Virus record (IMG/VR): IMGVR_UViG_3300042516_004943
Coordinates: 9,822-73,821 of that record
Origin: a virus
Reading direction: 5' to 3' (one strand)
Length of the DNA: 64,000 nt
Part shown: piece by piece, positions 2,158-19,727 of the stretch
Layout: every line of letters starts with the position of its first letter
How positions within the stretch are numbered: position 1 is the first letter of the stretch
The notes under the pieces: generated by a model
Databases searched by the model: none
The model's input: the letters and a program-made list of their open reading frames with translations, nothing else
What the model was told of the DNA's origin: nothing
Program-made: the position numbers and the translations under genes

Positions 2158-2191
2158 ACTTTTAATCTATCAGAAAAATCCGTTTTGTCAA
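2155..2191 (-). promoter_or_regulatory. early leaderless promoter P2
   Basis: TTGACA-N16-TAGATT-N6-ATG; the TGA in the -35 box is the stop codon of the upstream ORF. Confidence 0.8.
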
Positions 2192-2367
2192 GCGACTTTT
2201 TTCACGCTGACTTCCCAGTAGGGAAAGAACAGATGCATATAGCGAGCAGTCACTTGCACGCCATCCTTACGCCAGATGGTGCGCTTATTGCTCTGCGCAA
2301 CGTAGTGACCGAAGTCTTTCATGGCGTTGAGGACGATTTCCTTTTTGTGGGTTCCTTTTGTTATCAT
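2188..2367 (-). CDS. small basic hypothetical protein, 59 aa (MITKGTHKKEIV...), probably leaderless
   Basis: Start reassigned to ATG 2367, 6 nt after the -10 of P3. Confidence 0.7.
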   Translation of the reverse strand: MITKGTHKKEIVLNAMKDFGHYVAQSNKRTIWRKDGVQVTARYMHLFFPYWEVSVKKVA

Positions 2368-2401
2368 GCTTACACTATACCACAGAACGCGCAAAAAGCA
2401 A
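2365..2401 (-). promoter_or_regulatory. early leaderless promoter P3
   Basis: TTGCTT-N16-TATAGT-N6-ATG, extended -10, A-tracts upstream. Confidence 0.8.
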
Positions 2402-2453
2402 GGATTTTTTTTGCGATTGTGCAATTTTTTTTATTATTTTTTTGCTTGACATT

Positions 2454-2532
2454 TGTAAACTGTTGAATATCAGGCACTTACGCCTGGGGGCCAGGCCCGG
2501 TTCTGTAAGTGCTTGATTTGCAACGCTTTACG
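2454..2532. repeat. 79-bp double-palindrome element, copy 2
   Basis: TGTAAACTGTTGAATATCAGGCACTTACG-CCTGGGGGCCAGGCCCGGTTC-TGTAAGTGCTTGATTTGCAACGCTTTACG (29+21+29). Confidence 0.9.
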
Positions 2533-2683
2533 TATCTTGCCAACCACGAAAAAACTTTGCTTTGCGCGCGAATTTTTTCTTGACACGCATGGCAAACGAG
2601 GGCTTGCAAGTTGTCTTGCGAACGCTGCGCTCGATTGCGCGAGCAAGCGGTCGCGTGTCGATTGTCATAATGATTCTGCTCAT
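2528..2683 (-). CDS. small highly basic protein, 51 aa (MSRIIMTIDTRPLARAIERSVRKTTCKPSFAMRVKKKFARKAKFFRGWQDT)
   Basis: Hand-translated; abuts upstream ORF; TAA lies inside element copy 2. Confidence 0.6.
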   Translation of the reverse strand: MSRIIMTIDTRPLARAIERSVRKTTCKPSFAMRVKKKFARKAKFFRGWQDT

Positions 2684-2684
2684 G

Positions 2685-2915
2685 TTAGTTGACCCCAAAA
2701 GAGAATTGCTGATTTTTTACTGCGTTCAACTCTACCGCGAGCGTAGTCGAAACGCCACACAAGAGATTGAGTTTGTGCTCGTGCATGGTGATCGTGCGCA
2801 AAGCCTTCTCCAACATATCTTGAAGATGGTGGATGTGCGCCTCCTGCGCTTGGATTGTTTTCTCATGCTTGATGAGAGTTTCCAGCGATTTGATGATGCC
2901 GTCTTGTTGTGTCAT
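2685..2915 (-). CDS. small coiled-coil protein, 76 aa (MTQQDGIIKSLETLIKHEK...)
   Basis: Start reassigned to ATG 2915; heptad-like pattern. Confidence 0.65.
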   Translation of the reverse strand: MTQQDGIIKSLETLIKHEKTIQAQEAHIHHLQDMLEKALRTITMHEHKLNLLCGVSTTLAVELNAVKNQQFSFGVN

Positions 2916-2919
2916 AGTA

Positions 2920-3090
2920 TTAGTGTTTGGGTTTGGGTTTGGGTTCAGGACGAGCGCACGGATCGTTGCGGTGACGCTCCTCGGCATAGCCGAAAAGAAT
3001 GTCAAATGCTTGTTCCGGCGTGATCCAATCGTCCTCTGGGAGGTCGAAGCGCCATTCAGTAGGCCATGCGCCTGTGGTGTTTTCTGTCAT
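2920..3090 (-). CDS. small hypothetical protein, 56 aa (MTENTTGAWPTEWRFDLPEDDWITPEQAF...)
   Basis: Start reassigned to ATG 3090; tiles between neighbours. Confidence 0.6.
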   Translation of the reverse strand: MTENTTGAWPTEWRFDLPEDDWITPEQAFDILFGYAEERHRNDPCARPEPKPKPKH

Positions 3091-3094
3091 AAAA

Positions 3095-3304
3095 TTAATT
3101 GTCCCAACCTTCCTGTTCGCCCCAGTCCGCGAGATCGTCCATGCCCGACCCGTCACCGGGCCATTGACCCTCATACCCATCATAGGGTTGCGGCTCCTGC
3201 TCGACGGCAGGCTCGGCAGCAAACGTGCCGCGCATAGCCTCATGTTCAGAGGCCATCTCGTCGGATTGCGGTTGTGTGTTGAAGTCGTCAGTGATGTTGT
3301 TCAT
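3095..3304 (-). CDS. very acidic small protein, 69 aa (MNNITDDFNTQ...WPGDGSGMDDLADWGEQEGWDN)
   Basis: Start reassigned to ATG 3304; D/E-rich with a single Arg and no Lys. Confidence 0.7.
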   Translation of the reverse strand: MNNITDDFNTQPQSDEMASEHEAMRGTFAAEPAVEQEPQPYDGYEGQWPGDGSGMDDLADWGEQEGWDN

Positions 3305-3347
3305 GGTGTTAGGATATGGTGAGTTGAGGATTATTGCAAGCGTTTTT

Positions 3348-3698
3348 TTATGCGGCCAAAGCGGGACGCACACGGAACACAAGCTCCAGCTTGCCAGCAT
3401 CGGGGCGAGTCTCGCCAGCGAGGAAAGCGGCGAGCATCTTGCTGTCGAAGTTGAAGCGAGAGAGGGGGTGAGAGTTAGCCCAACGCAAGCCATCGGGCAA
3501 GCCAAGGTCGATGAGTTGCTCGACCTCTGCATCAGAGGGGCAGGAGTAAGGCGACCAGCCAAGGGTTGCGATAGTCTTGCCAGTCTCGACGCTGACGAGT
3601 TCGTGCCAGAGTTTCGTGCAGTCGCCATCGAAGTCCTCCGAGATGATGAGCGTGCAGAGGGTTCCGTTGACGTTGAATGTGGTGTCTTTATCTTTCAT
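3348..3698 (-). CDS. hypothetical protein, 116 aa (MKDKDTTFNVNG...), probably leaderless
   Basis: Start reassigned to ATG 3698, 6 nt after the -10 of P4. Confidence 0.75.
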   Translation of the reverse strand: MKDKDTTFNVNGTLCTLIISEDFDGDCTKLWHELVSVETGKTIATLGWSPYSCPSDAEVEQLIDLGLPDGLRWANSHPLSRFNFDSKMLAAFLAGETRPDAGKLELVFRVRPALAA

Positions 3699-3732
3699 GC
3701 TTATAGCATAACACAGCGCACCGAAAAAGCAA
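3696..3732 (-). promoter_or_regulatory. early leaderless promoter P4
   Basis: TTGCTT-N16-TATGCT-N6-ATG. Confidence 0.8.
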
Positions 3733-3791
3733 GAGATTTTTTTGCAATTGTGAAAGTTTTTTTTATATCTTTTTTCGCTTGACAGGCTGAG

Positions 3792-3811
3792 TTGGCACAC
3801 TTCTTGAACAG
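3792..3811 (+). promoter_or_regulatory. sigma54-like -24/-12 motif, copy 2
   Basis: TTGGCACACTTCTTGAACAG, identical to 994-1013. Confidence 0.45.
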
Positions 3812-3818
3812 CTGTTTG

Positions 3819-3897
3819 CATAAGTCGTTGAATATGAGGCACTTACGCCCGGCGGCCAGGCGGCCCGCCGTAAGTGCTTGATTTAGAACAACTTACA
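3819..3897. repeat. 79-bp double-palindrome element, copy 3
   Basis: CATAAGTCGTTGAATATGAGGCACTTACG-CCCGGCGGCCAGGCGGCCCGC-CGTAAGTGCTTGATTTAGAACAACTTACA (29+21+29). Confidence 0.9.
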
Positions 3898-3994
3898 GAG
3901 AACAGATCGTGCGCCAAACGATCACCACAGCAAGGCCCACAAGTGCGCCCTCTATGACACAGATGATTGCCTTTGTCATAGCGTGCTTTGTCAT
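3893..3994 (-). CDS. 33-aa single-TM microprotein (MTKHAMTKAIICVIEGALVGLAVVIVWRTICSL)
   Basis: 3' part of track ORF 3893..4111; TAA lies inside element copy 3. Confidence 0.5.
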   Translation of the reverse strand: MTKHAMTKAIICVIEGALVGLAVVIVWRTICSL

Positions 3995-3998
3995 AGTA

Positions 3999-4229
3999 TT
4001 AGCAAGGCGCGCCGCCATAGCACGGCGCATCTTCGTTTGCGAGGATAGAGCAGACTTTGTCATAGAAGTCTTTATCTGCTTCGAAGTCATCTTGCGAGAT
4101 GTCTTCACCATCTTCGTCAGTCAAGACAAAGCCAGAGAGTTGCAGTTGGTCAGCATGATCGAACGCATACTCTGTGCAGAGGTAGTATTCTTTTCCGTTG
4201 TGTGTGATGTAGTCTTCGTATGTATTCAT
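3999..4229 (-). CDS. small acidic protein
   Basis: 76-aa ORF, strongly D/E- and aromatic-rich. Confidence 0.75.
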   Translation of the reverse strand: MNTYEDYITHNGKEYYLCTEYAFDHADQLQLSGFVLTDEDGEDISQDDFEADKDFYDKVCSILANEDAPCYGGAPC

Positions 4230-4237
4230 GTTATGTC

Positions 4238-4513
4238 TTACAGGCTGAGTAGTGTATCGTGTTCGTGACCGCAGTCAATGATGAGTTTTTCCATAGCGCG
4301 AAGTTGCTCATCCGTCAGAACATTTTGTTCAGAGTCTTCTGCCTTGGTGATCGAGACATCGTCCACAACGTAGCCTTCATATTGGCTATCGTAAGAGGTG
4401 TCGATTCTGATGTCTTTGGGGTCGATGAAGTAGTCTTCTCCATCGATGCGGATTTCAAGGGTGTCACCATAGGCAGGTGTTCCGTAGCTCATAGCGTGAT
4501 TGATTTTTTTCAT
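4238..4513 (-). CDS. small acidic protein, probably leaderless
   Basis: 91-aa ORF; ATG 6 nt after the -10 of P5. Confidence 0.8.
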   Translation of the reverse strand: MKKINHAMSYGTPAYGDTLEIRIDGEDYFIDPKDIRIDTSYDSQYEGYVVDDVSITKAEDSEQNVLTDEQLRAMEKLIIDCGHEHDTLLSL

Positions 4514-4547
4514 ATATTTAAGATAGCAGAGGTGTGGGAAAAGTCAA
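4511..4547 (-). promoter_or_regulatory. early leaderless promoter P5
   Basis: TTGACT-N16-TATCTT-N6-ATG; -35 box contains the upstream TGA stop. Confidence 0.8.
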
Positions 4548-4729
4548 GCGATTTTTTCGATCTTTATGATCTCGCCGTCAGCAGGAAGATTCACCTTCAA
4601 GGCTTTTTCAACCTCATGGGAAACCCAAGTGATGCCATAGGCGGCAACCTCCAACGTAACGGGCAGAGGGTATGAGCCGATTTCGGTGGAGACTGATGCG
4701 GTGACTTTGTAGGTGTTTTTCTTTTTCAT
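4544..4729 (-). CDS. small hypothetical protein, probably leaderless
   Basis: 61-aa ORF; ATG 6 nt after the -10 of P6. Confidence 0.75.
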   Translation of the reverse strand: MKKKNTYKVTASVSTEIGSYPLPVTLEVAAYGITWVSHEVEKALKVNLPADGEIIKIEKIA

Positions 4730-4763
4730 GCTTTTAGAGTATCAGAGATGTGGTGAAAGTCAA
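4727..4763 (-). promoter_or_regulatory. early leaderless promoter P6
   Basis: TTGACT-N16-TACTCT-N6-ATG. Confidence 0.8.
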
Positions 4764-4766
4764 GGG

Positions 4767-4949
4767 TTATTTGTGGATTTTTTTCATCCATACGCAAGGC
4801 TCGACCCTATGGAACGAAACCTTGCAAGACCGACCAACGCGGTTGGTGAAGGTGAACGAGCGGATAGCCAGCGAAGCAAAGGTGCAAGTGGCCTTGTTGA
4901 GGGTAGCGAACTCCACGATCTCGCTGCTGGTGTAGTATTTTCTTTTCAT
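4767..4949 (-). CDS. small basic hypothetical protein, probably leaderless
   Basis: 60-aa ORF; ATG 6 nt after the -10 of P7. Confidence 0.7.
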   Translation of the reverse strand: MKRKYYTSSEIVEFATLNKATCTFASLAIRSFTFTNRVGRSCKVSFHRVEPCVWMKKIHK

Positions 4950-4983
4950 GCTTACACTCTACCACAGCCGCGCAAAAAAGCAA
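4947..4983 (-). promoter_or_regulatory. early leaderless promoter P7
   Basis: TTGCTT-N16-TAGAGT-N6-ATG; near-identical to P1 and P3. Confidence 0.8.
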
Positions 4984-5022
4984 GGGATTTTTTTATCTTT
5001 TTTGAAACTTTTTTTCTTGACA

Positions 5023-5440: not shown

Positions 5441-6742
5441 TTATCGTGATACAGTTTGCGTATAATTAAATCTTAATGCAAAGTTAATATCTTTGAATTG
5501 ACCCCTCTTGTTACCAAGGGCATCATAAAAATTATACAACCAACCATGGCTAAATCCACGACCATTACCATCAAGACCAATAGAAAATGGATCGGTTGGT
5601 ATGTACGGATTACTGTTATATCTATTTATAGTTGGTGTAAAAAATAATCCACCAATCCATCTAGAAGTATTTGGGACAGTTGCAGGAAAGAATATAGCGG
5701 CACTTTTGCTAGCTGTATTGCTTCCAGCAGTATAGGCATTGTTTGTAACACTGCCACCAATATCAACATGCGTATACAGTCTTGTTGCACTTTTTGTAGT
5801 GCCAATTGTGTTTGGAAGCGCTGTATTTGGGGGATAATCGTTAATATTTAGAGCATTATTTCCAAACTCATCATCAGCCCCCAAAAGAGCGGCTGCTGCA
5901 TATCCGTTATCGCCTTCTGTGCATGGTAATAGAGCCCATGGATTAATCCATGTAAAAGGCTGAAAGCTGCCGATTTGTGCATATTGTTTTTCTATATTAA
6001 TTCCGTTTGCGCTCATTTCTCCTAAGAAGTCACGATAACGACCCATAGCTTTCATTTTTCCAAGAGTAGAGAAACTTCCGCTTGTAATGTTTGGTACTTC
6101 AATTGGCGTAACAAGAGCAGGTATAGAAACTTGCAATGTATATGTTAATCTTAGAAATTGGAATGTATCTAAAATAACATTCGATGGTAAAACAAATCTA
6201 CTAAAAAGTATAAAGCCGGTTGGCCTTCCATAGCCGCTTTCTTGAACTGGAAAGCCGCCACCAGAGGTTTCTTTCATGCCGATTGCTACCTCTCTAACGG
6301 TATGCTGTCCTGTTTGTACGGCGTTAAAATCCCAAACCTTTGTATACACACAGCCATCTGCAACATCTTGGCGAAGACATGTACCAGTTGTATTTCTGCT
6401 TGACCATCCGCCATCTGCGCTTGGTGCAATTGTATTTCCTCTATAATTGGTTGCAGTTGGGTTTGCTGCGTTGCTTGAATATACAGCATGAGAAATTACA
6501 TCGGGTATTCCTCTTGCATGTCGTAAACCGCTAGCACCACCATCAAAAGAAAATGCACTTCTATCATGGCCAACTAAAAATCTCAAACCAGTATCTTGTA
6601 TTAGATTTGGCCTCATTTTGTCGCCAAAAGGCTGACTTACTTCACCATTAGGATGAACTATTTCTACTTTCCACTCTCCCTTGACAAGCATTTTGTTTTC
6701 AACAAATACTTCTTTGTATTTAGGTAAAATAATATTGGCCAT
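5441..6742 (-). CDS. putative virion protein, paralog family 1
   Basis: Shares GxWxVxI...PFG..MxxNxILD...YDF...SRFV...L(R/K)xTY pattern with 6793, 14141 and 17367 ORFs; upstream TGTAAT motif. Confidence 0.7.
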   Translation of the reverse strand: MANIILPKYKEVFVENKMLVKGEWKVEIVHPNGEVSQPFGDKMRPNLIQDTGLRFLVGHDRSAFSFDGGASGLRHARGIPDVISHAVYSSNAANPTATNYRGNTIAPSADGGWSSRNTTGTCLRQDVADGCVYTKVWDFNAVQTGQHTVREVAIGMKETSGGGFPVQESGYGRPTGFILFSRFVLPSNVILDTFQFLRLTYTLQVSIPALVTPIEVPNITSGSFSTLGKMKAMGRYRDFLGEMSANGINIEKQYAQIGSFQPFTWINPWALLPCTEGDNGYAAAALLGADDEFGNNALNINDYPPNTALPNTIGTTKSATRLYTHVDIGGSVTNNAYTAGSNTASKSAAIFFPATVPNTSRWIGGLFFTPTINRYNSNPYIPTDPFSIGLDGNGRGFSHGWLYNFYDALGNKRGQFKDINFALRFNYTQTVSR

Positions 6743-6792
6743 ATATTGATTATATTAACATTACAGTAGTAATTATACTTTTTTTTAATTTT

Positions 6793-7866
6793 TTATCTAT
6801 TAAAAATCCATCTGATTTTTACAGTTATTGGAGTATTTGCAGAAATAGTTTGTGCAGTATTGAATTTGTAATATATTGCTGTATTTGAATTAGTATCAGA
6901 ATGGTGCCATAAATAAATTCCACCAACTGTTCTGCTTGATGTGTGCGAAGGAAATGAATAGATGGCATCTATACTACTGAAAGCGTCTGTTTGTTGTAGG
7001 TTTGAAAATGAAACTGTAGCTAACGGACCAGACGGAGTATAGGTTATTCTAGAATTAGAATAGTTTACTGGACTATGAGCACTATCAAAAAAGCCTATAT
7101 TATTAACCCATGTAGCTGTGCCAAAAATATTTTGAAAAGCGCCATAAGTTGCTGGATCATTTGCAGTAACTATTGTACTCGTTGAATCAACCGTAAAATC
7201 TCTATAAGCATATCCATTTGTGTTGCCAAGCGTGATAATTGTATTATTTCCAGTAATAGTTGGCAAAAGACCGGTATTGTTTGTAGACATTCTAATATAG
7301 CCAGTAAAGTCCAAGCTGGCTCCGGTAAGGGCAATTGATAAATCGCTATTCAAATAATTTATAATTAAATTTAAAGAATATGTTATTTTTAATATATCTC
7401 CACTTTCTAAGTTGAGGGCACCTGGAAATACAAACCTACTTAATGTTATTGGGGTAGTATTTGCAATTGCGAAATTTCCAACACAAGCTTCAGAATAGCT
7501 GACCTGTGTGCCTGATGGCACAGCTGCAAATGTAAAATCACGGGTTAATATTATTTTATTATTAACGGAATCAATATTGGTTGTAAAAAATGTACTTCTG
7601 TGGGTTTGACCTAAAATTGTTCCTAGCAGGTTTGTTTGCGTTCTTGTTGGTGATGAGCCGTTTGAGCCAACCCTGCATGTTTGAATAAATGAGTGCAGTC
7701 CTTCGCTATAGCCTGTTAGAATTTTTTGATAAAACGTATCTAAAATTAGATTTTTATTTGGCTTTTTTCCAAACGGAAATAATACTTTGCCATTTTTTTT
7801 ATGTACAGAAACTAAGTATTCTCCAAATATTTTAGAAGTATTTTGTATGTCTATATCTGTTTGCAT
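6793..7866 (-). CDS. putative virion protein, paralog family 1
   Basis: FPFGKKPNKNLILD...VGSNGSSPTRTQTNL...SRFVFPGALNLESGDILKITY; beta-rich. Confidence 0.7.
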   Translation of the reverse strand: MQTDIDIQNTSKIFGEYLVSVHKKNGKVLFPFGKKPNKNLILDTFYQKILTGYSEGLHSFIQTCRVGSNGSSPTRTQTNLLGTILGQTHRSTFFTTNIDSVNNKIILTRDFTFAAVPSGTQVSYSEACVGNFAIANTTPITLSRFVFPGALNLESGDILKITYSLNLIINYLNSDLSIALTGASLDFTGYIRMSTNNTGLLPTITGNNTIITLGNTNGYAYRDFTVDSTSTIVTANDPATYGAFQNIFGTATWVNNIGFFDSAHSPVNYSNSRITYTPSGPLATVSFSNLQQTDAFSSIDAIYSFPSHTSSRTVGGIYLWHHSDTNSNTAIYYKFNTAQTISANTPITVKIRWIFNR

Positions 7867-7890
7867 AAACTATATTATAATAATAAAAAA

Positions 7891-10800
7891 TTAAAACATT
7901 TCTAATCCAGAAGCATAATAAGTTCCAGATTCATTTATATTTGGATAAATATAGGCCCCAATTCTGCCAAAACCAGAAGCTGTATAGTTTCCAGTATCTA
8001 TTCCAGTGATATGGTCTAAAATATCCGTTTCATAAATCACGCTATCAATATTTCCACTTATTGTTCCGCTTTCAAGCGACCCAGTAACGCCAACAAAGTA
8101 TTCATAATAGGCAATGTTTATAATGTTACCGCTTGTTATTCCAGATGTTCCTTCGCCTAAGACAAGTGGATTTTCAGAAGATGCGAAAAATATATTATCA
8201 ATTGATGCATTTAGGCCAGTATACATAATGTCTACGCCCGATAATCCACCAAAAAATCCACTTAATTCTAATGGTATTATTCCTGTAATATATAATCCAG
8301 TATCTATATTTCCAGAAACTGTTTGTCCTGTCATGAAATCTCCGCTGATACCAGTCAAAGAAAATGGTCGCGTACTAGCAACATATTCAAATCCTGTAAT
8401 ATTTCCAGAAAGCATACCGGTTATAAATTCTTGACTTTCGAATATGCCAGATACATTTGCAAGCACAACTCCGCTCGTGTATAGTACTCCAGTGCCAATT
8501 CCCGTTCCTGTACCTAAAGAAAAATTACCTATTGGATATACAATATCTGTGATTGGAAATTGCCCAAGGCCTGTAGTTATAAGTCCGCTTAAAAATCCTA
8601 TACCAGTATTTTGATTTGATATTCCAGAAAAACCAGTACCGCTATAGAAATTAAATGTAATTCCAACTGCCCTTCTATACACATCAGAAAAACCAAAGCC
8701 AGAAACTCCAGCATATTCGCCTGATTGTATTAATAAGCCGCGCAAGCCAAGCGTGCCAGTTAATATTCCAGAACCACTATTGACTTCTATGTGACCTATA
8801 AATCCAGTCATCATTCCATTTCCAAAAACATTTGAAACTGTTCCAGAAAATCCAGACCCTTCCGTAAAAGAATATCCAGAATATACTAAATTTGGATATT
8901 TAAAATTTGAATTTTGAGAATAGAAACTAGAATGGCTTACCGAATTTTGAGAAAAGAAATACTGTTTATTATCTATAAAATACCCACTTGATCCGGACGT
9001 ACCATCGCCTGTAGAGGCATAATTTATAAACCTTAATGATTGATCTAAAACTCCACTAATAAAGCCTATCATTCTTTCTCTCGGAAGAGTATTTTCTGAA
9101 ACAAAGCCGCTATTTGAAAAGTTAAATCCATAAACTGTATTTGTAAATCCTGGATCAAAACCAGATTCTCCATTAAATCCATTAAAATTTAATGCTATTG
9201 GTTTTTTGACAGTTCCTATAATTCCAGTTAAAATTCCACTACCAGTAGTTAACTGCTCTAGCGTAAAAGGATTAAACTGTATTCCAGAGAATCCAGTAAA
9301 TTGACTATTAATCGTATAGCCCGAATATAAATTTCCATATCCATAATTTAATTGCTCAAATCCGCCAATTCCAGTAAATTGTCCAGAATATTTTAAAATA
9401 TTTTTATATCCAATATGTCCAGTCATTATTCCTGGTCCAAGAAACGGATCATTAAACCCGATAAAACCGCTTTGCTCTATGAAAAATCCCGAAAATTCAT
9501 AACCAAGATCTGGGTCAACAAAGCCTGGGGTTTTTTCAAAATTAATTGAGGCATTTACGCCAGTATCAAAATATATATCCTGCTCATAATTTTCATAGTA
9601 ATATCCGCTATATTCACCAGTTATTACCGCGTCCTGATCTTTGCCTGAAAAAGTTCCGTCTCCGAGCATTGTGCCAAATAAAAATCCAGTAATAAGAACT
9701 GGCTCTAGTATCGAATCTGGTAAAAATTTATACGACACATTATCTTTTATAAATCCGCTATTTTGAAAAATTCCCGTTGCCTGTAGAAAAAACCCATCTT
9801 CTTCTAAAATGCCGCTTATGTATCCGGTAATATATTCGTATACAAATCCAGTATATGGAAAATCTACTCTTGTATTATCTATAAAGTATCCGCTTTGTGC
9901 TAAAGCACCAGCAGATCTAACAAAATTAAAATTATTATCTATTGATCCGTTAATATACCCAATAACTTGCTCTGCGCCAGTTGTTCTGTAAGGGGGAAAT
10001 TGTATTACATTTCTTTCTAGCAATGTTAGCCTTTGACCACTATAAGATCTACTGTATGGCCCAAATATTCCTATCCCACTATTTATCCCAGAGTATCCTG
10101 TGTATATGCCACTGTAAAATCCGCTAAAACTTGATACAAGGTTTGGGGCAAATGGTTCAAAGGTTCCATTCGGATACATTATTCCACTAATTTTACCATA
10201 CAGGCCTTGATTGTATATATTTTCTATATCCAACAATCTGTAATTAACTACTCCTGTTATATAATCTGCGCCAGTAATTTGGCTTTGATTGCCGAATTCT
10301 AAATATTCCGTTGGCGAAAATGCATTCCACATATTGCCTTCTTGAACTATTGACCAGCTTCCAATATCTCTTAAAAAGAAACCAACAATATTTGCGCTCA
10401 TTATATTAGATAATGATTCTGCGGCTTGAGCCGTTTTATTCTCTGAAGCGATATATGCCAAACTATTTATATTTCCACTTACTGTTGAAAATGAAATATC
10501 TGATACGTTTACTGCTATAGGTAATGGCGGCAAAATTATAGCTAAAGATTCTGCCATATTAATAGATATGTCATCAGCTATTCTTCTATAATCTCCTCTT
10601 AAAACCAGAAATCCGCCGCAGTAATGATCAAGCGCTGCAGTATCATAAGTTTGTCTTCCCAAATTGCTCATTCCGGCCCCGATCACCATTCTTTTCGGCA
10701 TCCAGTATTCTGGCTCTTGCACTGTTCCAGAGCGTGTAGTTATTCTGTAAGGCTGTGGGAATGTTCCGGTATATATGCCAGGATCTTTTCCAAAGAAAGA

Positions 10801-11502
10801 TCTTATTTCGTAAGAATCAAGCTGAGAATAAACCATCAAACAAACAAATTTTTCAGTTCCATTATCTGACTCATAAAAAGAAAATGGGTCTCTTTCTACG
10901 ACTTTTTTTACTTGATCTGCTGAATAGTCTACAGCAAATCCTTTTTTATCTCCTCCAAATATTTCATCATAAATATAAGTTGTACCTCGAGGTCTAAATT
11001 GGCTGGTTGAAAAACATGGCGCAACAACCCCATAGGTATCTACGGATTTATCAAAGCAAAAATAAGGAGGCTCTTCTACGCTTGGTCTGTATAAGCTTGT
11101 TTCATATTTACCTCTTGCATGTTTAAAAAAATAAAAAACTGTTGTTGGGTCTTTTCTAAATTGAAAATTTGGATCGCTAGTTCCTGAAAATTCTAGCTCG
11201 CCACAATTATCAAGTGCATTTAAAAATATACCAGATTCATGCCAATTAACATTTTTGGGAAATTTTAAAGAAGTTCCCGAGCATAAATTGCCTATTCCAA
11301 ACACTTCATTTCCAAAACCAATATTATTATGCTTTCTTAGTGGAAAGTATGCGAATTCCAAATCGTCTTTAATACTGCACAAATAATCAGTAAAATCATT
11401 TATCTTTGATATTGCATCTGCAGAATAATATCCCCTGCCTTGGCCACTAATTTGCGCCAAGAACCTACTAACTAATGGGTTAATGATATCATAATGTAGC
11501 AT
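7891..11502 (-). CDS. large SG/TG-rich virion-type protein containing ~5 nested copies of the inserted module
   Basis: 1203-aa ORF; N-terminus weakly resembles family 3 (13315/18522); central SG-rich modules. Confidence 0.75.
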   Translation of the reverse strand: MLHYDIINPLVSRFLAQISGQGRGYYSADAISKINDFTDYLCSIKDDLEFAYFPLRKHNNIGFGNEVFGIGNLCSGTSLKFPKNVNWHESGIFLNALDNCGELEFSGTSDPNFQFRKDPTTVFYFFKHARGKYETSLYRPSVEEPPYFCFDKSVDTYGVVAPCFSTSQFRPRGTTYIYDEIFGGDKKGFAVDYSADQVKKVVERDPFSFYESDNGTEKFVCLMVYSQLDSYEIRSFFGKDPGIYTGTFPQPYRITTRSGTVQEPEYWMPKRMVIGAGMSNLGRQTYDTAALDHYCGGFLVLRGDYRRIADDISINMAESLAIILPPLPIAVNVSDISFSTVSGNINSLAYIASENKTAQAAESLSNIMSANIVGFFLRDIGSWSIVQEGNMWNAFSPTEYLEFGNQSQITGADYITGVVNYRLLDIENIYNQGLYGKISGIMYPNGTFEPFAPNLVSSFSGFYSGIYTGYSGINSGIGIFGPYSRSYSGQRLTLLERNVIQFPPYRTTGAEQVIGYINGSIDNNFNFVRSAGALAQSGYFIDNTRVDFPYTGFVYEYITGYISGILEEDGFFLQATGIFQNSGFIKDNVSYKFLPDSILEPVLITGFLFGTMLGDGTFSGKDQDAVITGEYSGYYYENYEQDIYFDTGVNASINFEKTPGFVDPDLGYEFSGFFIEQSGFIGFNDPFLGPGIMTGHIGYKNILKYSGQFTGIGGFEQLNYGYGNLYSGYTINSQFTGFSGIQFNPFTLEQLTTGSGILTGIIGTVKKPIALNFNGFNGESGFDPGFTNTVYGFNFSNSGFVSENTLPRERMIGFISGVLDQSLRFINYASTGDGTSGSSGYFIDNKQYFFSQNSVSHSSFYSQNSNFKYPNLVYSGYSFTEGSGFSGTVSNVFGNGMMTGFIGHIEVNSGSGILTGTLGLRGLLIQSGEYAGVSGFGFSDVYRRAVGITFNFYSGTGFSGISNQNTGIGFLSGLITTGLGQFPITDIVYPIGNFSLGTGTGIGTGVLYTSGVVLANVSGIFESQEFITGMLSGNITGFEYVASTRPFSLTGISGDFMTGQTVSGNIDTGLYITGIIPLELSGFFGGLSGVDIMYTGLNASIDNIFFASSENPLVLGEGTSGITSGNIINIAYYEYFVGVTGSLESGTISGNIDSVIYETDILDHITGIDTGNYTASGFGRIGAYIYPNINESGTYYASGLEMF

Positions 11503-11512
11503 ATACTAGCAT

Positions 11513-13306
11513 TTATTTATAAAACCCACCAAGCGCTATATTCACATCTGATATTCCAGATAAGGTTTTTAAAATATCAATTCCTATTCTATCACCAGCA
11601 GTTACTTCAAAAGAAATTTTTGAATTTGCATCTGTTTCTGCATACATCATTCCAGAGCTTATACCAAAATCTATTAAATATTCTTTAACCCCATTTTTAT
11701 TCTTCTTATAAAATTTTCCAGTTAATGGAGAAAAATCTGGAAGATTTCTATAGCCTATCAGCCCAGTCATTATTCCAAGTCCGGAATTTGAAAATTGAAC
11801 TCCACTAAATCCACTTTTTGCTGGAAAAAATCCACTATATTCATATCCGTACTGTTTAATAAATCCGTTTTCAGATTCGAAGGCCTCAAATTGGTAAGTT
11901 CCGTTGCCACCCGTTACAAATCTTCTTTGCTCATATGGATATAAAAAGTATCCACTAAATCCATCAGTATTGGGTGGATATCCCGCACCAGTATGAATTG
12001 GTCTGAAATTTGGCAATACCTCAACTTCTAAAAATCCACTGATTATTTCCCCCCTTAGTTCTTCTCTTACCCCTATTGGCCCATATAAATATCCAGTAAA
12101 TCCTCCAGACACATCTTGGTATAATCCAGTAAATTGGTTTTGATTTGTATTGCTAAATATTCCAGAATATATATAATTTACGTTCTGAAATCCTGGCATG
12201 CCACTAAAGCCAGAAAATAAACCGCTTCCAGTAGGAAAATAGTATTGCTGCCCACTTAAAAAATATCCACTTGAATCGATTATGAATCCGTTTCTTCCTG
12301 TTGGAAACCCACTTATTCTAAATCGAAATGATGATAGTGGATAAAAAATATTTGTTGAGCTTCTATATCCACTTAAAAAGCCAGTAATTACATTATCAAG
12401 CTTATATACATTTCTACTACCTATTGCTTGCGTATATACTGCTGGGCCAAAATTATCAGTATTAGCGGATCCTGTTAGCGCATTTATATTAAACCCAGTA
12501 AATGAATACCCTAAATTTTGATCAAAACCAGGCTCTCCATTAAAACCACTAAAGTTAGTATTTGAAAAATATTTAGCATTGTTATTTATAATATATCCAC
12601 TACCGCCATTAAATAAAAATGACCGTTGTCTTTCTAAAAATCCGCTAATATATCCGGTAATATAATTTGTAAATGTAGTTGGTCCAGCCCCAGAATTACC
12701 ACAATATAATCCCCATCCAGTAAATTCAGCTGGATATTGAATATATTGTTCATATAAATTTTCTTTTATTTGCACATTATTACCATAATAATTAAAAGCT
12801 ACTGGTATTTTATCGAATGATGCGGCGGCAGAATAATAACCTAACAAGCTTATTGACAATGATCGCATTTCATTTGCTGATGAATGAATATTTAGGCCTA
12901 ATATATTATGTGGTGTTATTTTGTAATCTAAAGGTCCATTATTAGAGTATTGATATTTTCCTAAAGTAAATGCTCCAACATATTTAGTATCAATAACACT
13001 TTCTGGCTTTCTTGTATAAAAAGATCCTTCTAACTTATCATCTCCTGTTGCTGGGTGTGAGCATGTGACCAAAAATCCAGTGGCCATAAAAAAATCACTC
13101 ATATATATTTCATTTAAATAATTTCCAACAACTGGCCATCTGCTATAAAATGATATTGGAGCATATCCTCTTAAAAAAAATCTATCCGTTAATTGTATCC
13201 CAGATGTATTTTTAACTTGCATGCCATCAATAAATAAACGATTGTCATGGGCAGTTAAAATGGACCCATTTAAATTGATAGATTCTATGGATAGTACGCT
13301 TGGCAT
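11513..13306 (-). CDS. virion-type protein, paralog family 2 (related to 29225..31123), with 3 tandem inserted modules
   Basis: Two beta-sandwich-like repeats (..TGW..; PLTGKFY..IGIDI..V.I.LGG) match the 29225 ORF; the second repeat is interrupted by SG modules. Confidence 0.75.
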   Translation of the reverse strand: MPSVLSIESINLNGSILTAHDNRLFIDGMQVKNTSGIQLTDRFFLRGYAPISFYSRWPVVGNYLNEIYMSDFFMATGFLVTCSHPATGDDKLEGSFYTRKPESVIDTKYVGAFTLGKYQYSNNGPLDYKITPHNILGLNIHSSANEMRSLSISLLGYYSAAASFDKIPVAFNYYGNNVQIKENLYEQYIQYPAEFTGWGLYCGNSGAGPTTFTNYITGYISGFLERQRSFLFNGGSGYIINNNAKYFSNTNFSGFNGEPGFDQNLGYSFTGFNINALTGSANTDNFGPAVYTQAIGSRNVYKLDNVITGFLSGYRSSTNIFYPLSSFRFRISGFPTGRNGFIIDSSGYFLSGQQYYFPTGSGLFSGFSGMPGFQNVNYIYSGIFSNTNQNQFTGLYQDVSGGFTGYLYGPIGVREELRGEIISGFLEVEVLPNFRPIHTGAGYPPNTDGFSGYFLYPYEQRRFVTGGNGTYQFEAFESENGFIKQYGYEYSGFFPAKSGFSGVQFSNSGLGIMTGLIGYRNLPDFSPLTGKFYKKNKNGVKEYLIDFGISSGMMYAETDANSKISFEVTAGDRIGIDILKTLSGISDVNIALGGFYK

Positions 13307-13314
13307 ATTTTTTA

Positions 13315-14148
13315 TTACATTACCGATCTGAACATTGCTTTCTGAAAATTATCTACTGCTATATTATAATTATAAATATCATTTTCAGAAAATGCATAAC
13401 CAACAGAAGCGAGCGCTATGTTCGCATCCAACGTTGATGTTACTTTGCTTAAGTAATTATTGCCAAAAAGTAACAATTTTAAATTATTTTTTAAATCTAT
13501 ATCTGTAGGTAATAACGGAAACCAATTTCCAAAAACTTGCCCATTCAAGTAGCACTTGGTAGTGTTGATGCCAATCATAAGTCCCGTTCCGCTAATATTA
13601 GAATTGATCATTTGATCGGCGGTATATCCAAATCCGCCTAAAGTATTAATTATATTATAAACATATCCAACAATGCCATCATTTTTACTAAAATTTAACT
13701 CGAAGGCCCCAACGCCAGAAAGTTCTTGAATAAAATTTCTAGTATTTACTCCAATAAATCTTCCATCTTTTGTTATGTTTGAAAATGGCGTTCTATTGTA
13801 TACTGATATATGAACGTTTTTAAATGATGCAAATAATGTTAATGGTATATCAGTATTTCCATAACCCGTTACTCCGGTTACGCCATTTTTATTGTGGGTT
13901 TGCTGTCCAAACCAAGAGATTTTATACTTATTAGGATCTATAAGATTAAAGCTGTGCGAAGATGCGGTTCCTCCAATAAAAGGATAAAGGGCTATAAATT
14001 TATCTATTAAATTTAATTGCCACAATGCATCAGCAAATTCGGCAAGTGCGCCAACTTCATGATTTCTAAACACTTTAAAGCCACCGCAAGCATTAATGAA
14101 TGGCATTACGGTTGTGTTAAAAGAATCGTTTACTCGCCTTTTATACAT
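13315..14148 (-). CDS. virion-type protein, paralog family 3 (helical head plus LamG/ConA-like domain)
   Basis: ALW..NLIDKFIALYPFIGGTASSHSFNLIDP..GYGNT..HISVY motif shared with 18522..19727. Confidence 0.7.
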   Translation of the reverse strand: MYKRRVNDSFNTTVMPFINACGGFKVFRNHEVGALAEFADALWQLNLIDKFIALYPFIGGTASSHSFNLIDPNKYKISWFGQQTHNKNGVTGVTGYGNTDIPLTLFASFKNVHISVYNRTPFSNITKDGRFIGVNTRNFIQELSGVGAFELNFSKNDGIVGYVYNIINTLGGFGYTADQMINSNISGTGLMIGINTTKCYLNGQVFGNWFPLLPTDIDLKNNLKLLLFGNNYLSKVTSTLDANIALASVGYAFSENDIYNYNIAVDNFQKAMFRSVM

Positions 14149-17100
14149 ATGTTTCTCTATTCATGGCCAGAGTAATATTTAGAGATATTAATTGATCTTC
14201 AAATTTTGTCTGATAGTTATCAAATCTGTAATACCAACCAACATATGGAATATTTATACCCTCAAGATAGTACGCAAAATAATCTTCAAAAACAAAAGGT
14301 TTTGTTGGGTGCCAAAGGCGATTTGCGTTCCATTTTTCCATAGGGGCAAAAAAGAAGCCACCGATGCCCGTATCATTATTTGGAAATTCTGCTTTGAATT
14401 GAAACCAATAATTAATTTCTTTTGGATATGAATTAGATGGGTAGTCTGTTGTTAGGCCTCCATATTCATACGTTGGCCAAGATGGAAATGGAGTATTTGC
14501 AAGATTAATACGGTATCTTTTTCCATAATAATCAGTATTATTAGGATATTTGCCTTGAATACCGATCTCTGTAACTTCATCTCCGCCAGGTATTACAAAC
14601 ATAAATCTAGTATCGTTTTCAGGCGGAAATGGTGGCGGGTAGTTTGGATAGAATCCCAATCCACTTTCAGGCTCGTTTCCGATCATAACTGCTGATAGAT
14701 AGATATTTGGGTTTATTTGATTTCCAAAAAACCATTTATTGTGCGCTGGCCACCAAAACCCGTACATTGGGCCTGCTTGCGAGCCAACAGCTGAAGCTAT
14801 TCCGTTAGGAGTAATGGTTCCGAATATTCTACTATAATTTCCAATAAGTTTGATTGAGCCGCTTCCGTTAAAATCGCCATAAACTACATTTTCTCCGGTT
14901 ACAGGTATTGGAGTTATCATTGCCGGAATTCTTATAGCTGTATCATATCTTACTTTTACAAATTCTCCAGTTGTTAGTTCTATACCCGACAATTGCTTTC
15001 TAAAACCAAAGATGCCCGTCATAATTCCACTATTAGACCTAATAAAATAATCATTTCTTGAACCTATGAATCCGGTAAGTGATCCTGTAATGCTATTTGT
15101 TGGATATGTATAGAAAACTCTATGACCTATAAATCCAGAAAGAATACCTGTGCCAAAAGCTCCGGTTAGTCCAGAAAATGTAGAGCCTTCTGGGAAATTG
15201 AAACCAGTATAAGCGAACCCGGTATCGATACTAAAACCGGGCATTCCATTAAAGCCAGAAAATGTATTTCCGGTTGGAAAATAATATTGTTGGTTATTTA
15301 AGAAATATCCGCTAGATCTTAGTTGTGGAAGTTCTGGATATAAATCTTGAAAGGTAAAAAATTGACCAAGATCGTTTCTAAATCCGCTTATAAAGCCATT
15401 AATTTTTTCATAGTTTATTTTTGGCCAACTCTCCCCAGAAAATCCACTCTGTGATGGGAAAAAGCCCGAGAAAGAAAAGCCTAATCCAGTATAAAAGCCT
15501 GGCATTCCGCTAAAACCAGAAAATGTATTTCCGGTTGGAAAATAATATTTTTTACCACTTAATATATATCCACTAAACCCTTGACTTCCAGGTATAGGAA
15601 CAGTAAATGGAATGAATGTGCCAAATGCATTTGTTACACCGCTTCTGAAGCCAACAATGCGCTCTCTTTCAAGTACAGTATTGTATATAAAACCGCTACC
15701 ATATTGTAGATTGAACATTCTACCGCTCGGATTATATCTCCAGCCATATTCGAAAGATGGTATGTTATCGAATCCCTGCTCTTCAGTACCAAAAGATCTA
15801 AGAACGTTTCTGTTTCCAATAATACCGCTGGCGTAACCAGGGCCAGTATTTCCGTTAATTGTTTTTACTGTATAGCTAGGAAAATTTAAACCGCTAAATT
15901 GAAAACCTAAATAGCTATCAAATTCTGGCAGCCCTGAAAATCCGCTTAATGGTATATTTTCATATAAATTTCTATATCCTAATATTCCAGTCAAAATTCC
16001 AGTTCCAGAACTTGTATTATCAACACCGCTAAATCCGCTCCCAGTTATATATGGAAAACCGCTATATGCAAATCCAAGATAAGCATCAAATTCATTTGGG
16101 TTTTCTCCAGCAAATCCAATAAATTCACCGCTTTTATAAAAAAAGTTTCTGCTGCCAATAAATCCAGTATAAATTCCAGTTCCAGAATTAGTAAATTCTA
16201 TACCACTAAATCCGCTTGAAAATTGGAAAAAACCTGAGTATATAAATCCAGTTTCATTACTAAATCCTAATTGGCCAGAAAATCCAGAAAAAGATTGTCC
16301 GGTAGGAAATGCTCTTTGGGATCCTTCAAAAAAATATCCGCTAGATAACTTATCAATTTCACTAAATCCGCTAAAAATGGTACCGGATTGAAAACCACTT
16401 ATATAACCTATAATTCTTTCCGTCCTTATTTCTTGTATTGGTGGAAATTGATATCTTTGATTATTTAAATAGTATCCACTAGAACTATAAAGCAAATTCG
16501 ATTCAAATCCAGAAAAATTACCAGTAGTATCACGAAATCCGCTAATATAGCCAGTTATTGGTTGAGAAATTACTTTGCGATTTGCGAATGGAATTTGTTG
16601 TCCGTTAATAACGTATCCACTTAAATATGCATGTTTAAATTGAGGATCATTTTGATTATAAAATGTAAAATTATTAAATTGGTCTAAATTTCCACTCCTG
16701 TAACCATATACAATTTGATATTCTTTTGTTTTAACAGGGGGTATATTATATAACTGACCAGAAACTATTATTCCGCTACCTATATCTATTGGGTGATTGT
16801 GCAAGTTAAAATTGCCACTATTATCAATATATCCGCTTAAAAATCCGGTAGCAAGCTCTTCAGATGTAAATAAAAATCTAGACCATATACCTCGCCTACC
16901 GGCATTGTTAGATAAATCTGATGCATTTGGTTTGAAACCAGCTTCTGTATAGGTGACTCTTTCCGATTCAATAGGAAAATCATATGTTCTAGAAAAAATA
17001 GCCATTCCTGATCCAGATATGTAAGTTCCTGTGGCTCTATTAAAATTTGGCCTAATATAGTTTGTTTGTTTATAAAATCTATGCAAAGCTGTATCTTTAT

Positions 17101-17365
17101 CTGAAATTGGCTTTGTTCCTGTACCAAGCTGCATAGTTCCATCAGTAAGTCTTGAAAAAACAAGCCCCCCTCCAATACTTGAAGTTTTAGCATTGCCAGG
17201 GCTCATTAATTCTACCATTGATTCGAGCCATAAGTCTAATATTCTATTAGACTTCATTTCTTTTCCAAATGGAAACGAAGATTCAATGCCGGATTCTCCA
17301 GATCTACATATTTCGACATTCCATTTCGCCGATAAGTATGTGTTTATTTGTGCGTTTGCTTCCAT
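14141..17365 (-). CDS. paralog-family-1 virion protein split by a ~625-aa insertion of 6 nested modules
   Basis: N- and C-terminal parts align by eye with the 5441/6793/17367 ORFs; insertion lies between SRFLF and LSGIELTTGEFVKVRY. Confidence 0.8.
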   Translation of the reverse strand: MEANAQINTYLSAKWNVEICRSGESGIESSFPFGKEMKSNRILDLWLESMVELMSPGNAKTSSIGGGLVFSRLTDGTMQLGTGTKPISDKDTALHRFYKQTNYIRPNFNRATGTYISGSGMAIFSRTYDFPIESERVTYTEAGFKPNASDLSNNAGRRGIWSRFLFTSEELATGFLSGYIDNSGNFNLHNHPIDIGSGIIVSGQLYNIPPVKTKEYQIVYGYRSGNLDQFNNFTFYNQNDPQFKHAYLSGYVINGQQIPFANRKVISQPITGYISGFRDTTGNFSGFESNLLYSSSGYYLNNQRYQFPPIQEIRTERIIGYISGFQSGTIFSGFSEIDKLSSGYFFEGSQRAFPTGQSFSGFSGQLGFSNETGFIYSGFFQFSSGFSGIEFTNSGTGIYTGFIGSRNFFYKSGEFIGFAGENPNEFDAYLGFAYSGFPYITGSGFSGVDNTSSGTGILTGILGYRNLYENIPLSGFSGLPEFDSYLGFQFSGLNFPSYTVKTINGNTGPGYASGIIGNRNVLRSFGTEEQGFDNIPSFEYGWRYNPSGRMFNLQYGSGFIYNTVLERERIVGFRSGVTNAFGTFIPFTVPIPGSQGFSGYILSGKKYYFPTGNTFSGFSGMPGFYTGLGFSFSGFFPSQSGFSGESWPKINYEKINGFISGFRNDLGQFFTFQDLYPELPQLRSSGYFLNNQQYYFPTGNTFSGFNGMPGFSIDTGFAYTGFNFPEGSTFSGLTGAFGTGILSGFIGHRVFYTYPTNSITGSLTGFIGSRNDYFIRSNSGIMTGIFGFRKQLSGIELTTGEFVKVRYDTAIRIPAMITPIPVTGENVVYGDFNGSGSIKLIGNYSRIFGTITPNGIASAVGSQAGPMYGFWWPAHNKWFFGNQINPNIYLSAVMIGNEPESGLGFYPNYPPPFPPENDTRFMFVIPGGDEVTEIGIQGKYPNNTDYYGKRYRINLANTPFPSWPTYEYGGLTTDYPSNSYPKEINYWFQFKAEFPNNDTGIGGFFFAPMEKWNANRLWHPTKPFVFEDYFAYYLEGINIPYVGWYYRFDNYQTKFEDQLISLNITLAMNRETYV

Positions 17366-17366
17366 T

Positions 17367-18479
17367 TTAAATTCTAGCCATAGATTGCCTTAAATTAATT
17401 ACAATTTTTTTATCAGATCTTTTTATTTGCGGGTTATTTAATTTCCACAACCATCCATCAACTGTATTTTGTCTATTTGTTTTTACAGTTGTAAATAAAA
17501 AACCTCCTATAGTTTCATTTGCTGTTGGATTATTTATATCAAATACATATTCAATATCTCTGTAAAAACTTCCTTGAGTATAATTAGATGGGTTTATTGT
17601 TCCGTTGGCTACAGAAAGTCTGCTACCAAGCCAGTTAGTAAATAGGGTATTATTAATATTATTTTCATTCTCAAAAAAATTTGTTAAAAGATAAGCTGTG
17701 CCAAAGCATTTATTTGTGCATGTTTCTATTTCTGCACAAAACTCTTCACAAAATGGCATAAAAGAAGATCTTGGCGAATCGCCATTTCTGATAACTGGAT
17801 TTCCATCTAAATCAAAGCTTCCGAATATATCATCAAATCTTCCAACTAATTTTAACCATCCATTAGCATTGAATGTTCCAGAAGATAAATTTATATTTAT
17901 TGGATTGACAATAGCACTACACGAAATAGAAAAATTATAAAACAATCTTAACCACTGCCCTCTTGGTATAAGAATCGGGCTGTCTAAAAGAAATTTTGTA
18001 AATAATTCTCCGTTCCATCCGTTTTTAAGCCCTATTTCAGAAGCTGTATAAGACTTTGGAAACATTGGTAAGTTTTCTGGCTTTGGAAAATCATATACTT
18101 TTTTAAAAACTCTTTTTCCTAAACTATAAAAATCTTCAATTGAGCATGATTTATCGTTTATAACGTTTGTTTCTAATGTTTGATATGTTAAATTAGTATC
18201 GCTGGCTTGCGCTGGAGCTATTCCGGAGCCTAGCACAGCGTTTCCTTTCAAAAAAGATGGTATAGTATTCCAATTTAAATTTAAATGGGGGCCATAGCCA
18301 TTATTTGCAGATAGAATATCAAGGGCCTGATCTAGTATAAGGTTTTTTTTATATGAACTTCCAAATGGAAAAGTTTCTTTATTATTCTCATCAACTATAG
18401 CTACGTTCCAGGATCCACCAATTTCAAATGATGGGTTTATAGATACGCCTAAATGATTTTTTATATGCAAATTTAACAT
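17367..18479 (-). CDS. putative virion protein, paralog family 1
   Basis: GSWNVAIV..FPFG..KKNLILD..LGSG..ASDTNL..KVYDFP..LFTKF..WLRLFY..LKLVGRFDDIFG. Confidence 0.7.
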   Translation of the reverse strand: MLNLHIKNHLGVSINPSFEIGGSWNVAIVDENNKETFPFGSSYKKNLILDQALDILSANNGYGPHLNLNWNTIPSFLKGNAVLGSGIAPAQASDTNLTYQTLETNVINDKSCSIEDFYSLGKRVFKKVYDFPKPENLPMFPKSYTASEIGLKNGWNGELFTKFLLDSPILIPRGQWLRLFYNFSISCSAIVNPININLSSGTFNANGWLKLVGRFDDIFGSFDLDGNPVIRNGDSPRSSFMPFCEEFCAEIETCTNKCFGTAYLLTNFFENENNINNTLFTNWLGSRLSVANGTINPSNYTQGSFYRDIEYVFDINNPTANETIGGFLFTTVKTNRQNTVDGWLWKLNNPQIKRSDKKIVINLRQSMARI

Positions 18480-18521
18480 TTTTATTAATTATGATAATAT
18501 ATATTTTTATATTTTATAATT

Positions 18522-19727
18522 TTATATTTCCGTAAATTGCATAATATTAATGCTTGCAGCAGTTGAATCAGACAGGTATAGTCTTCGTGGGCCAAAAACT
18601 TCTATTTTATTTATAGATAATGTTGGCGTAATACATTGATTTTCTTTTTTAAATCTATCATAAATTTCATCTTTTAATGGGTATAGGTGGCGACTTGTGA
18701 GTGTTGTAACTTTGTCAATTCTAATGCTTGGAGCAACCCTTGGATTCGTTTCATCAACGAGCATTTCGCTTTCGCCAAGCCTGAATGTACCAACGTTTCT
18801 TCTCAAGATGGTCTGGAATTCTTCAACTATATCATAAAATATTTTATTTTCATAATCATCAAGGGCTGTACCTATGGTGGCAAATCGTATATTTGCCTTG
18901 GCGGTTTGTTCCGTTTGTCCTTTAATAGTTTGGGCTACAGATCCAAAAGCTCTATGCGTTAACAATAAAAATGGATATTGGCTAAATGTTGGGATTGCTT
19001 CATTAAAAGAATTTAATTGCGTTGGGTTTATTCTGCTTGATACAGCATTTGATAATAGAGAATATGCGCCTAATTTTTCTCCGCCTGTATAGCAATAAAT
19101 ACCATTAACGCCAACTATTAGTCCCCAGGCCTGTGCATTTAATTGATCTCCTGCGTCAACACCAGCGCCTCTAAATGGTGGGAACGTTCCGCAGCTATAA
19201 GTAAAAATTGGTGCTTGAAGAATTCCTTTTGATGGATCATTATCTATAAAAGTTTGCGGTCTTCTGCGCAAACTAATTGTATGCATCCATGATGAAGAGT
19301 TAGGGTCGGGTGTCGATCCTATAAGGGCACATTCTGCAGATGTATCATACCATCTAGTAGCGTTATAAACAGAAACGTGTATATCATTATCGCTAAACCA
19401 TGATGGCGCAACAAATGTATTTCCATATCCAGTTCCTGTATTTGTTACCCCATTTTTATCGAAAATTAATGAGTTGTACCAAACAATAGTATGCCTATAA
19501 GGATTTTTTAAATTAATGCTCATTGATGGTCCAGATCTGCCAACCAGTGGATAAATAGCTCTAAATTTTGACCAAAGATTTGTTGATATAAGAGCTGTGG
19601 TTAAAAAGTCCAAAGCTTTAATTTCATCCGAATTTGGCTGAACCGGAGACGTTTCAAACATTCTTTGTATGAATAGCAAGGATGCTGGATGAAGTGTATC
19701 TCTTAACTGCTTGCTGATTATTTGCAT
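18522..19727 (-). CDS. virion-type protein, paralog family 3
   Basis: LWSKFRAIYPLVG...NLKNP...GYGNT...HVSVY...FATIG..L....YDIVEEFQTILRRNV; upstream TGTAAT. Confidence 0.7.
   Translation of the reverse strand: MQIISKQLRDTLHPASLLFIQRMFETSPVQPNSDEIKALDFLTTALISTNLWSKFRAIYPLVGRSGPSMSINLKNPYRHTIVWYNSLIFDKNGVTNTGTGYGNTFVAPSWFSDNDIHVSVYNATRWYDTSAECALIGSTPDPNSSSWMHTISLRRRPQTFIDNDPSKGILQAPIFTYSCGTFPPFRGAGVDAGDQLNAQAWGLIVGVNGIYCYTGGEKLGAYSLLSNAVSSRINPTQLNSFNEAIPTFSQYPFLLLTHRAFGSVAQTIKGQTEQTAKANIRFATIGTALDDYENKIFYDIVEEFQTILRRNVGTFRLGESEMLVDETNPRVAPSIRIDKVTTLTSRHLYPLKDEIYDRFKKENQCITPTLSINKIEVFGPRRLYLSDSTAASINIMQFTEI

Follow-up and report, generated by a model that had tools for sequence, protein, structure and literature searches.

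Recursive insertion of a protein domain into copies of itself is very rare, and its best-documented case is Si3 of the cyanobacterial RNA polymerase, in which members of one family have been inserted into each other with branching (PMC11515920, PMC13114784, PMC10895346). Si3 has an eight-domain, six-level architecture with bifurcating nodes (PMC13114784); in its crystal structure four of the eight domains are assembled from distant segments of the chain, and the whole forms a 150-angstrom arm in the trigger loop (PMC10895346). On a smaller scale, the DysF domain of dysferlin and myoferlin lies in a copy of itself, the sequence reading N-N-C-C (PMC3898210). Nested insertions in general (A1-B1-C-B2-A2 in ECOD) are found in loops with adjacent entry and exit points, and most of those catalogued are single-level and join different families (PMC13114784). 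Here we describe a nested arrangement in the protein P0001, encoded on the minus strand of a 64,000-nucleotide window of viral DNA (bases 9822-73821 of the 73.8-kb IMG/VR virus record IMGVR_UViG_3300042516_004943). The original prediction for this gene, made from its letters and reading frames, knew of no named family with such an architecture; in view of the recursive same-family insertion described for Si3, and of the two-level one for DysF, that claim does not stand and the architecture is not categorically new.

The explanation that we favor, and consider probable as a whole, is that P0001 is a tail-fiber-like protein of an uncultured long-tailed phage, probably receptor-binding, in which one short surface turn of a conserved beta-rich body bears a 625-residue outgrowth of nested modules. 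This outgrowth consists of six copies of an all-beta module of about 95 residues, belonging to a previously undescribed family. The module has two permissive loops, one between its parts A and B (after a Y-x-F-P strand) and one between B and C (before the last long strand), and whole modules or whole nests would have been inserted into these two loops of earlier copies. The resulting topology, 1(2(3(4)))(5(6)), would provide module 1 with two arms, the chain going outward along the A parts and back along the B and C parts. Each set of A(n), B(n) and C(n) would fold as one domain, and hence the two ends of the outgrowth would return to the host loop next to each other. Related phages would lengthen, shorten and re-branch these arms by the gain or loss of balanced blocks, and such changes might tune the reach or valency of a host-recognition structure, a role that we propose only tentatively.

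As in Si3, the outgrowth (~630-645 residues in both) sits in one loop of a host domain, is built from one small beta domain family inserted into itself (8-9 copies in Si3, six in P0001) and varies in copy number between lineages. Discontinuous domains made from distant segments, bifurcating nodes and an elongated arm are common to both as well, but in P0001 these are only predicted, whereas the discontinuous folding of Si3 was solved experimentally. The host is RNA polymerase beta' there and a phage fiber-like protein here, where the module has spread into three genes of a single genome. Moreover, Si3 is ancient and fixed, whereas in the present family orthologs sharing 65-83% identity differ in depth, which makes the process look recent and still under way. 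P0001 works like Si3 but does not appear to be a member of the HABAS/SBHM family; a relation to it was sought, with no Pfam match, no PDB sequence match and none among the structural alignments, although such lists do not exclude one. DysF shares the same-domain nesting and its N-N-C-C sequence, but has only two levels and no branching, and P0001 has no Pfam DysF match. Like nested insertions in general, the P0001 modules are inserted in loops, but one family occupies all levels, to a depth of 4-5. What is new here is the domain family, the phage fiber-like host protein and the evolutionary lability.

The site of the outgrowth is defined by three shorter paralogs (P0005, 370 aa, and the open reading frames (ORFs) 6793-7866 and 5441-6742), which have one beta-rich domain in common with P0001. 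By BLASTP, residues 15-131, 793-855 and 973-1070 of P0001 are colinear with residues 24-132, 167-226 and 298-369 of P0005. A five-way alignment brings the halves of the P0001 host domain together between SRFLFTS and SGIELTTGEF, precisely where the paralogs have a turn of a few residues; therefore one loop has received an insertion of some 625 residues (~169-792, nucleotides 14990-16861). All three of the paralog turns given in the original prediction are indeed present (ORFs 5441-6742, 6793-7866 and 17367-18479), and both alignments bear out its ~625-residue insert in place of a short turn of the 1074-residue ORF. The gene is divided as follows:

14141..17365, minus strand: P0001, the focal gene, 1074 aa, a tail-fiber-like host domain with a nested insert
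16862..17365, minus strand: N-terminal part of the host domain (aa 1-168), with homologs in P0005 and two further paralogs
14141..14989, minus strand: host domain, C-terminal part, aa 793-1074 plus stop, from BLASTP and the five-way alignment

With respect to function, P0001 (aa 39-148, E 7e-5) and P0005 (aa 285-369, E 1e-7) give weak but significant matches of partial coverage to the tail fiber profile phrog_4176. The likeness to phage tail fibers thus consists of these profile matches and of the position of the genes, which adjoin the structural gene block; on the other side, the matches span only part of the host domain, and a solved or annotated relative was not found. P0001 is a probable tail-fiber protein of an uncultured phage, its location in the virion being suggested by the weak profile matches. 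A Pfam search at E values up to 0.1 gave no family for P0001, nor for the two neighboring genes, P0002 and P0004, that also carry the module:

11513..13306, minus strand: P0002, 597 aa, three tandem uninterrupted modules, which supplied reference copies
7891..11502, minus strand: P0004, 1203 aa, another host protein, with a nested set of its own of the same module

A 100-position hidden Markov model (HMM) of the module was built from seven copies without interruption (three from P0002 and two each from P0004 and P0001). On P0001 it gave a series of partial matches, which by their HMM coordinates are A, A, A, ABC, BC, BC, a weak B, AB, ABC and C. HMMs iterated separately for each of the three parts, used at cut-offs that shuffled sequences never reach, place these parts (by residue) at A173, A218, A269, A316, B359, C395, B415, C454, B474, C508, B531, A568, B615, A653, B702, C738 and C760, with a further C779 just under the cut-off (4.4 bits). 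The insert then reads:

16742..16849, minus strand: A1, aa 173-208, outermost module, degenerate, 22 bits
16583..16714, minus strand: A2, aa 218-261, 29 bits
16442..16561, minus strand: A3, aa 269-308, 52 bits
16139..16420, minus strand: module 4, uninterrupted A4-B4-C4, aa 316-409, tip of arm 1, 99 bits with the full-length HMM
15962..16123, minus strand: B3-C3, aa 415-468, 35 and 20 bits
15800..15946, minus strand: B2-C2, aa 474-522, 20 and 17 bits
15686..15775, minus strand: B1, aa 531-560, degenerate, 8.4 bits, above the shuffle maximum of 4.9
15434..15664, minus strand: A5-B5, aa 568-644, base of arm 2, 53 and 38 bits, predicted local distance difference test (pLDDT) mostly 65-88 in the nest model described below
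15110..15409, minus strand: module 6, uninterrupted A6-B6-C6, aa 653-752, in the B/C site of module 5, 104 bits, pLDDT 81-94
15053..15088, minus strand: C5, aa 760-771, 17 bits, strand 194-206 of the nest model
14996..15034, minus strand: C1, aa 778-790, weak closing strand of module 1, 4.4 bits, below the cut-off

The third terminal C, equivalent to the weak C1, is detected in the orthologs P0008, P0009, P0011, P0013 and L010 ORF1. Since every nested unit is detected by one HMM built on uninterrupted copies, the units form a single homologous family. Among 125 composition-matched shuffled proteins the scores peaked at 7.1 bits for A, 4.9 for B and 4.3 for C, whereas most of the real parts in P0001 score 17-57 bits (8.4 for the degenerate B1 and 4.4 for C1), and therefore the parts are not low-complexity noise. 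To quantify the nesting, we wrote it as a grammar (M -> A S B S C, S being a run of M of any length) and counted edits to the nearest generated word. Among the orderings of six A, six B and six C parts, 1428 of 17,153,136 are bracket-balanced; the P0001 order is one edit from balanced, because of the weak C1, and 40 permutations of it needed at least 3 edits (mean 7.3). We regard the nested layout of the insert as close to certain. Nor is it an assembly artifact, since the identical protein is present on five contigs and an ortholog of 1072 aa that is 78% identical has the same layout. The earlier reading of this insert holds up well: the part HMMs reproduce its bracket order (A A A A BC BC BC B AB ABC C C, with the last C sub-cut-off), agree with its A and C coordinates within a few residues and, built from the uninterrupted copies as it had proposed, detect more than SG noise. 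Its assignment of 2(3(4)) to the A/B site of module 1, and of 5(6) to the B/C site, is supported by the HMM layout and by the grammar of the relatives.

These relatives came from a word-indexed search and a full HMMER scan; the latter found the module in only 20 of 1.84 billion representative proteins, so the family is tiny, and with cluster members included some 40 proteins were fetched. No relative of P0001 was found in 50,697 phage records (tblastn, cultured phages) or in the reference prokaryote genomes, its sequence matched nothing in the PDB, and neither a metagenome scan with P0002 nor a viral scan with P0025 gave relatives. The ~40 relatives have differing part orders, most of which are 0-3 edits from balanced, whereas permutations of the same parts average 5-10. 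For example, P0015, with the order AAABCBCBABCC, has a perfect parse, (A(A(ABC)BC)B(ABC)C). Nesting reaches a depth of 5, and insertions occur at the A/B and B/C boundaries only, with short linkers at the nest junctions (medians of 8 residues for A-A and 7 for B-A, C-B and C-C). The uninterrupted ABC is the commonest arrangement, forming simple tandem arrays in P0002. Between orthologs, the pairwise scores of single A, B and C parts were too noisy to give one-to-one partners.

In each related genome in which all three genes fall inside the fetched DNA, the module is carried by three neighboring genes. At the P0002 position, loci L001, L003, L005, L009 and L010 have genes of 843-1046 aa with nests up to 4 deep, such as (ABc)(A(ABC)BC)(AB(A(AB(ABC)C)BC)C). 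Under strict cut-offs the parts of P0004 run A A A A B C C A B C. One relative, P0012, has a gap of ~150 residues (~520-668) between B and C without detectable module parts, representing a foreign domain in the B/C site or else a set of degenerate modules.

Comparisons between orthologs provide natural experiments on how such nests change. P0019 and P0020 are 65% identical over 1034 columns, and their sole gap of at least 10 columns is a 196-aa block in P0019 (residues 475-670). This block has an A motif at its start and two C motifs at its end, reads A B A B C C and separates B from C in one module, two parts that adjoin directly in P0020, with flanks identical at 25/40 and 31/40 positions; it is a balanced two-module nest. 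P0020 and P0021 are 71% identical; neighboring gaps of 48 and 52 columns account for a difference of ~100 aa, which we interpret as a single ABC module placed at an A/B junction, with the outer A and the outer BC conserved on either side. Finally, L010 ORF1 (1243 aa) and P0013 (929 aa) are 83% identical overall, but arm 1 has four modules (2-5) in one and a single module in the other, both balanced. Each pair has a module that is contiguous in one phage and split by whole modules in its ortholog, which is what an insertion model predicts, and not what repeat expansion predicts. The gain or loss of whole modules at two fixed loops is therefore very probable, and the different nesting depths that had been anticipated at the same two sites are seen in both P0019/P0020 (ABABCC at B/C) and P0020/P0021 (ABC at A/B).

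At the DNA level, arm 2 contains a direct repeat at two module junctions:

15233..15314, no strand assigned: copy 1 of an 82-nt DNA repeat, A/B junction of module 6, 83% identical to copy 2
15494..15575, no strand assigned: copy 2, A/B junction of module 5

The repeat suggests a recent duplication or gene conversion. It could also serve as a substrate for recombination, which would delete B5 and A6 and leave an unbalanced A B C C.

To consider how a split module might fold, we modeled the nest of arm 2 (210 residues, aa 566-775, A5 B5 A6 B6 C6 C5) with AlphaFold2, from an alignment that combined nine nests with ten single modules. The kept model has a mean pLDDT of 81.4 (76-81 across all five models) and a predicted template modeling score (pTM) of 0.52, compatible with two confident domains whose relative orientation is loose. 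In the model the strands of the split outer module (2-13, 19-21, 33-37, 40-43, 65-67, 75-81, then 194-206) and of the inner module (84-98, 104-106, 120-124, 127-130, 152-154, 164-167, 173-188) have a matching seven-strand succession, and the inner module lies between outer strands 6 and 7. On such modeling, and on the weak structural alignments described next, split modules likely fold as single domains, which would make the outgrowth a two-armed tree.

In a wide VIA search of 48,161 PDB chains, most structural alignments fell on model residues 82-192, the inner module as one compact unit, and no Z reached 4. The KCTD H1, IL-17RC and Kelch blade families align to residues 86-187 and, through other entries, also to a span from 1-2 to 205-210, which at such Z scores gives weak, indirect support to the idea that A5 B5 and C5 would form a domain like the inner module. 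The best, though weak, alignment of the inner module is to DysF (4cah_B, Z 3.8, 88 residues, root mean square deviation 4.5), which is below the level of a shared fold and only a curiosity; 9h6x_D (Z 3.4) and 8p5p_A (Z 3.3) follow (model residues 82-189). Foldseek searches of both models against the PDB and BFVD gave nothing at E 0.001 or less, no known fold could be assigned, and the ESM Atlas had no usable neighbors, its own P0002 model having a pLDDT of 0.37. A complex prediction for A3 (aa 265-315) with B3C3 (aa 410-470), using separate alignments, scored 0.10 against a mark of 0.32 and is counted neither way.

Several observations weigh against nested, autonomously folding modules. Some relatives parse only with 2-3 missing or extra parts, which may reflect detection failures or truly unbalanced forms. 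Within proteins, conservation scores of A, B and C under nested versus shuffled pairing gave no co-variation for split modules. The arm that differs between L010 ORF1 and P0013 has itself diverged, implying the replacement of a cassette rather than a clean indel. In the structural search, no alignment across the outer module exceeds Z 2.6, and strand C5 could pair with C6 instead of A5. Moreover, of the branched tree that had been predicted, the nest is confidently modeled and its split outer module repeats the inner strand pattern, but the full-length AlphaFold2 model of P0001 is poor (pLDDT 55, pTM 0.37).

Some of these features would suit a layered, fold-back fiber, in which successive A parts make up one continuous beta layer and the BC parts on the way back another, the modules being rungs of a hairpin solenoid rather than autonomous domains; the balance would then merely reflect equal numbers of rungs out and back. 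Long continuous strands do bridge consecutive parts (for example 394-412 in the full-length model and 75-98 in the nest model), three C strands follow each other with ~7-residue linkers, the pTM of the nest is modest, and neither Foldseek nor VIA found a match to a known globular fold. Such a fiber is nevertheless hard to reconcile with the predominance of uninterrupted ABC units and their simple tandem arrays in P0002, or with indels that are whole modules at fixed loops. Branching, with two children on one module and several children per site, does not easily fit a single two-layer hairpin, and most of the weak structural alignments center on the inner contiguous module. We consider the fold-back fiber improbable.

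Phage fibers are usually trimers, which raises the possibility that the brackets reflect domain swapping in an oligomeric (for example trimeric) fiber, the A parts completing the BC of another chain. In keeping with this, the monomer predictions for full-length P0001 and for P0002 (ESM Atlas) are poor, and domain swapping between recursively inserted domains has been reported for Si3 (PMC11515920). Yet the monomeric nest was modeled with good confidence, outer strands included, intramolecular pairing is the simpler account of balanced counts within one chain, and no coiled-coil or trimerization signal turned up, though no search was aimed at one; complementation between chains thus seems quite improbable. 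As for Gly/Ser/aromatic low-complexity repeats ordered by chance or alignment bias, the composition is strongly biased to G, S, F and Y, the C parts have just 15 residues and the outermost A1, B1 and C1 score low, but the shuffles, the grammar counts (an order kept in the 78% ortholog and balanced in dozens of relatives) and the clean module-sized indels, above all that of P0019/P0020, effectively refute this reading.

A bolder proposal is that the module is a self-propagating structural cassette, with two loops so receptive to further copies that tree-shaped receptor-binding arms are continuously built, pruned and re-branched by related phages in three fiber genes; as it stands we think this rather unlikely. 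Conserved DNA repeats at module junctions may act as recombination sites that aid the spread of the cassette. Were the proposal true, it would offer a fast, modular route to host-range change and the first system in which recursive domain insertion could be followed as an ongoing, population-level process rather than an ancient relic. More modestly, if the arms bind receptors they would be a modular means for phages to adjust the reach or valency of their fibers. In any event, the orthologs supply natural before-and-after pairs for studying how insertions arise, which loops tolerate them and how a split domain keeps folding, and the two loops of this small beta module are possible sites for engineered domain display.

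Turning to the genome as a whole, its completeness is estimated by CheckV at about half. The window codes for a large terminase, a portal, a capsid-like protein and a tape measure protein, and the phage must therefore be long-tailed; the length of the last protein implies an unusually long tail:

42186-49943, plus strand: tape measure protein, 2585 aa, PF10145, E 1e-29

The terminase is only 22-23% identical to those of cultured Bacillota phages, and hence we draw no inference about the host. P0001 belongs to an eight-gene minus-strand block (5441-19727) between a GC-richer early region and the structural genes. Positions 1-5000 of the window, the early region, have a GC content of 46-50%, against ~30-37% across most of the remainder. 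Within the block, P0003 (277 aa, 13315-14148, minus strand) and P0006 (401 aa, 18522-19727, minus strand) are paralogs (30% identity, E 6e-23) for which a family match was sought, with none for either; their genes are interleaved among the fiber-like genes. The last ~250 residues of P0004 consist of a different short repeat, rich in Gly, Thr and Ser (SGNI, TGxxSG), that the module HMMs do not match.

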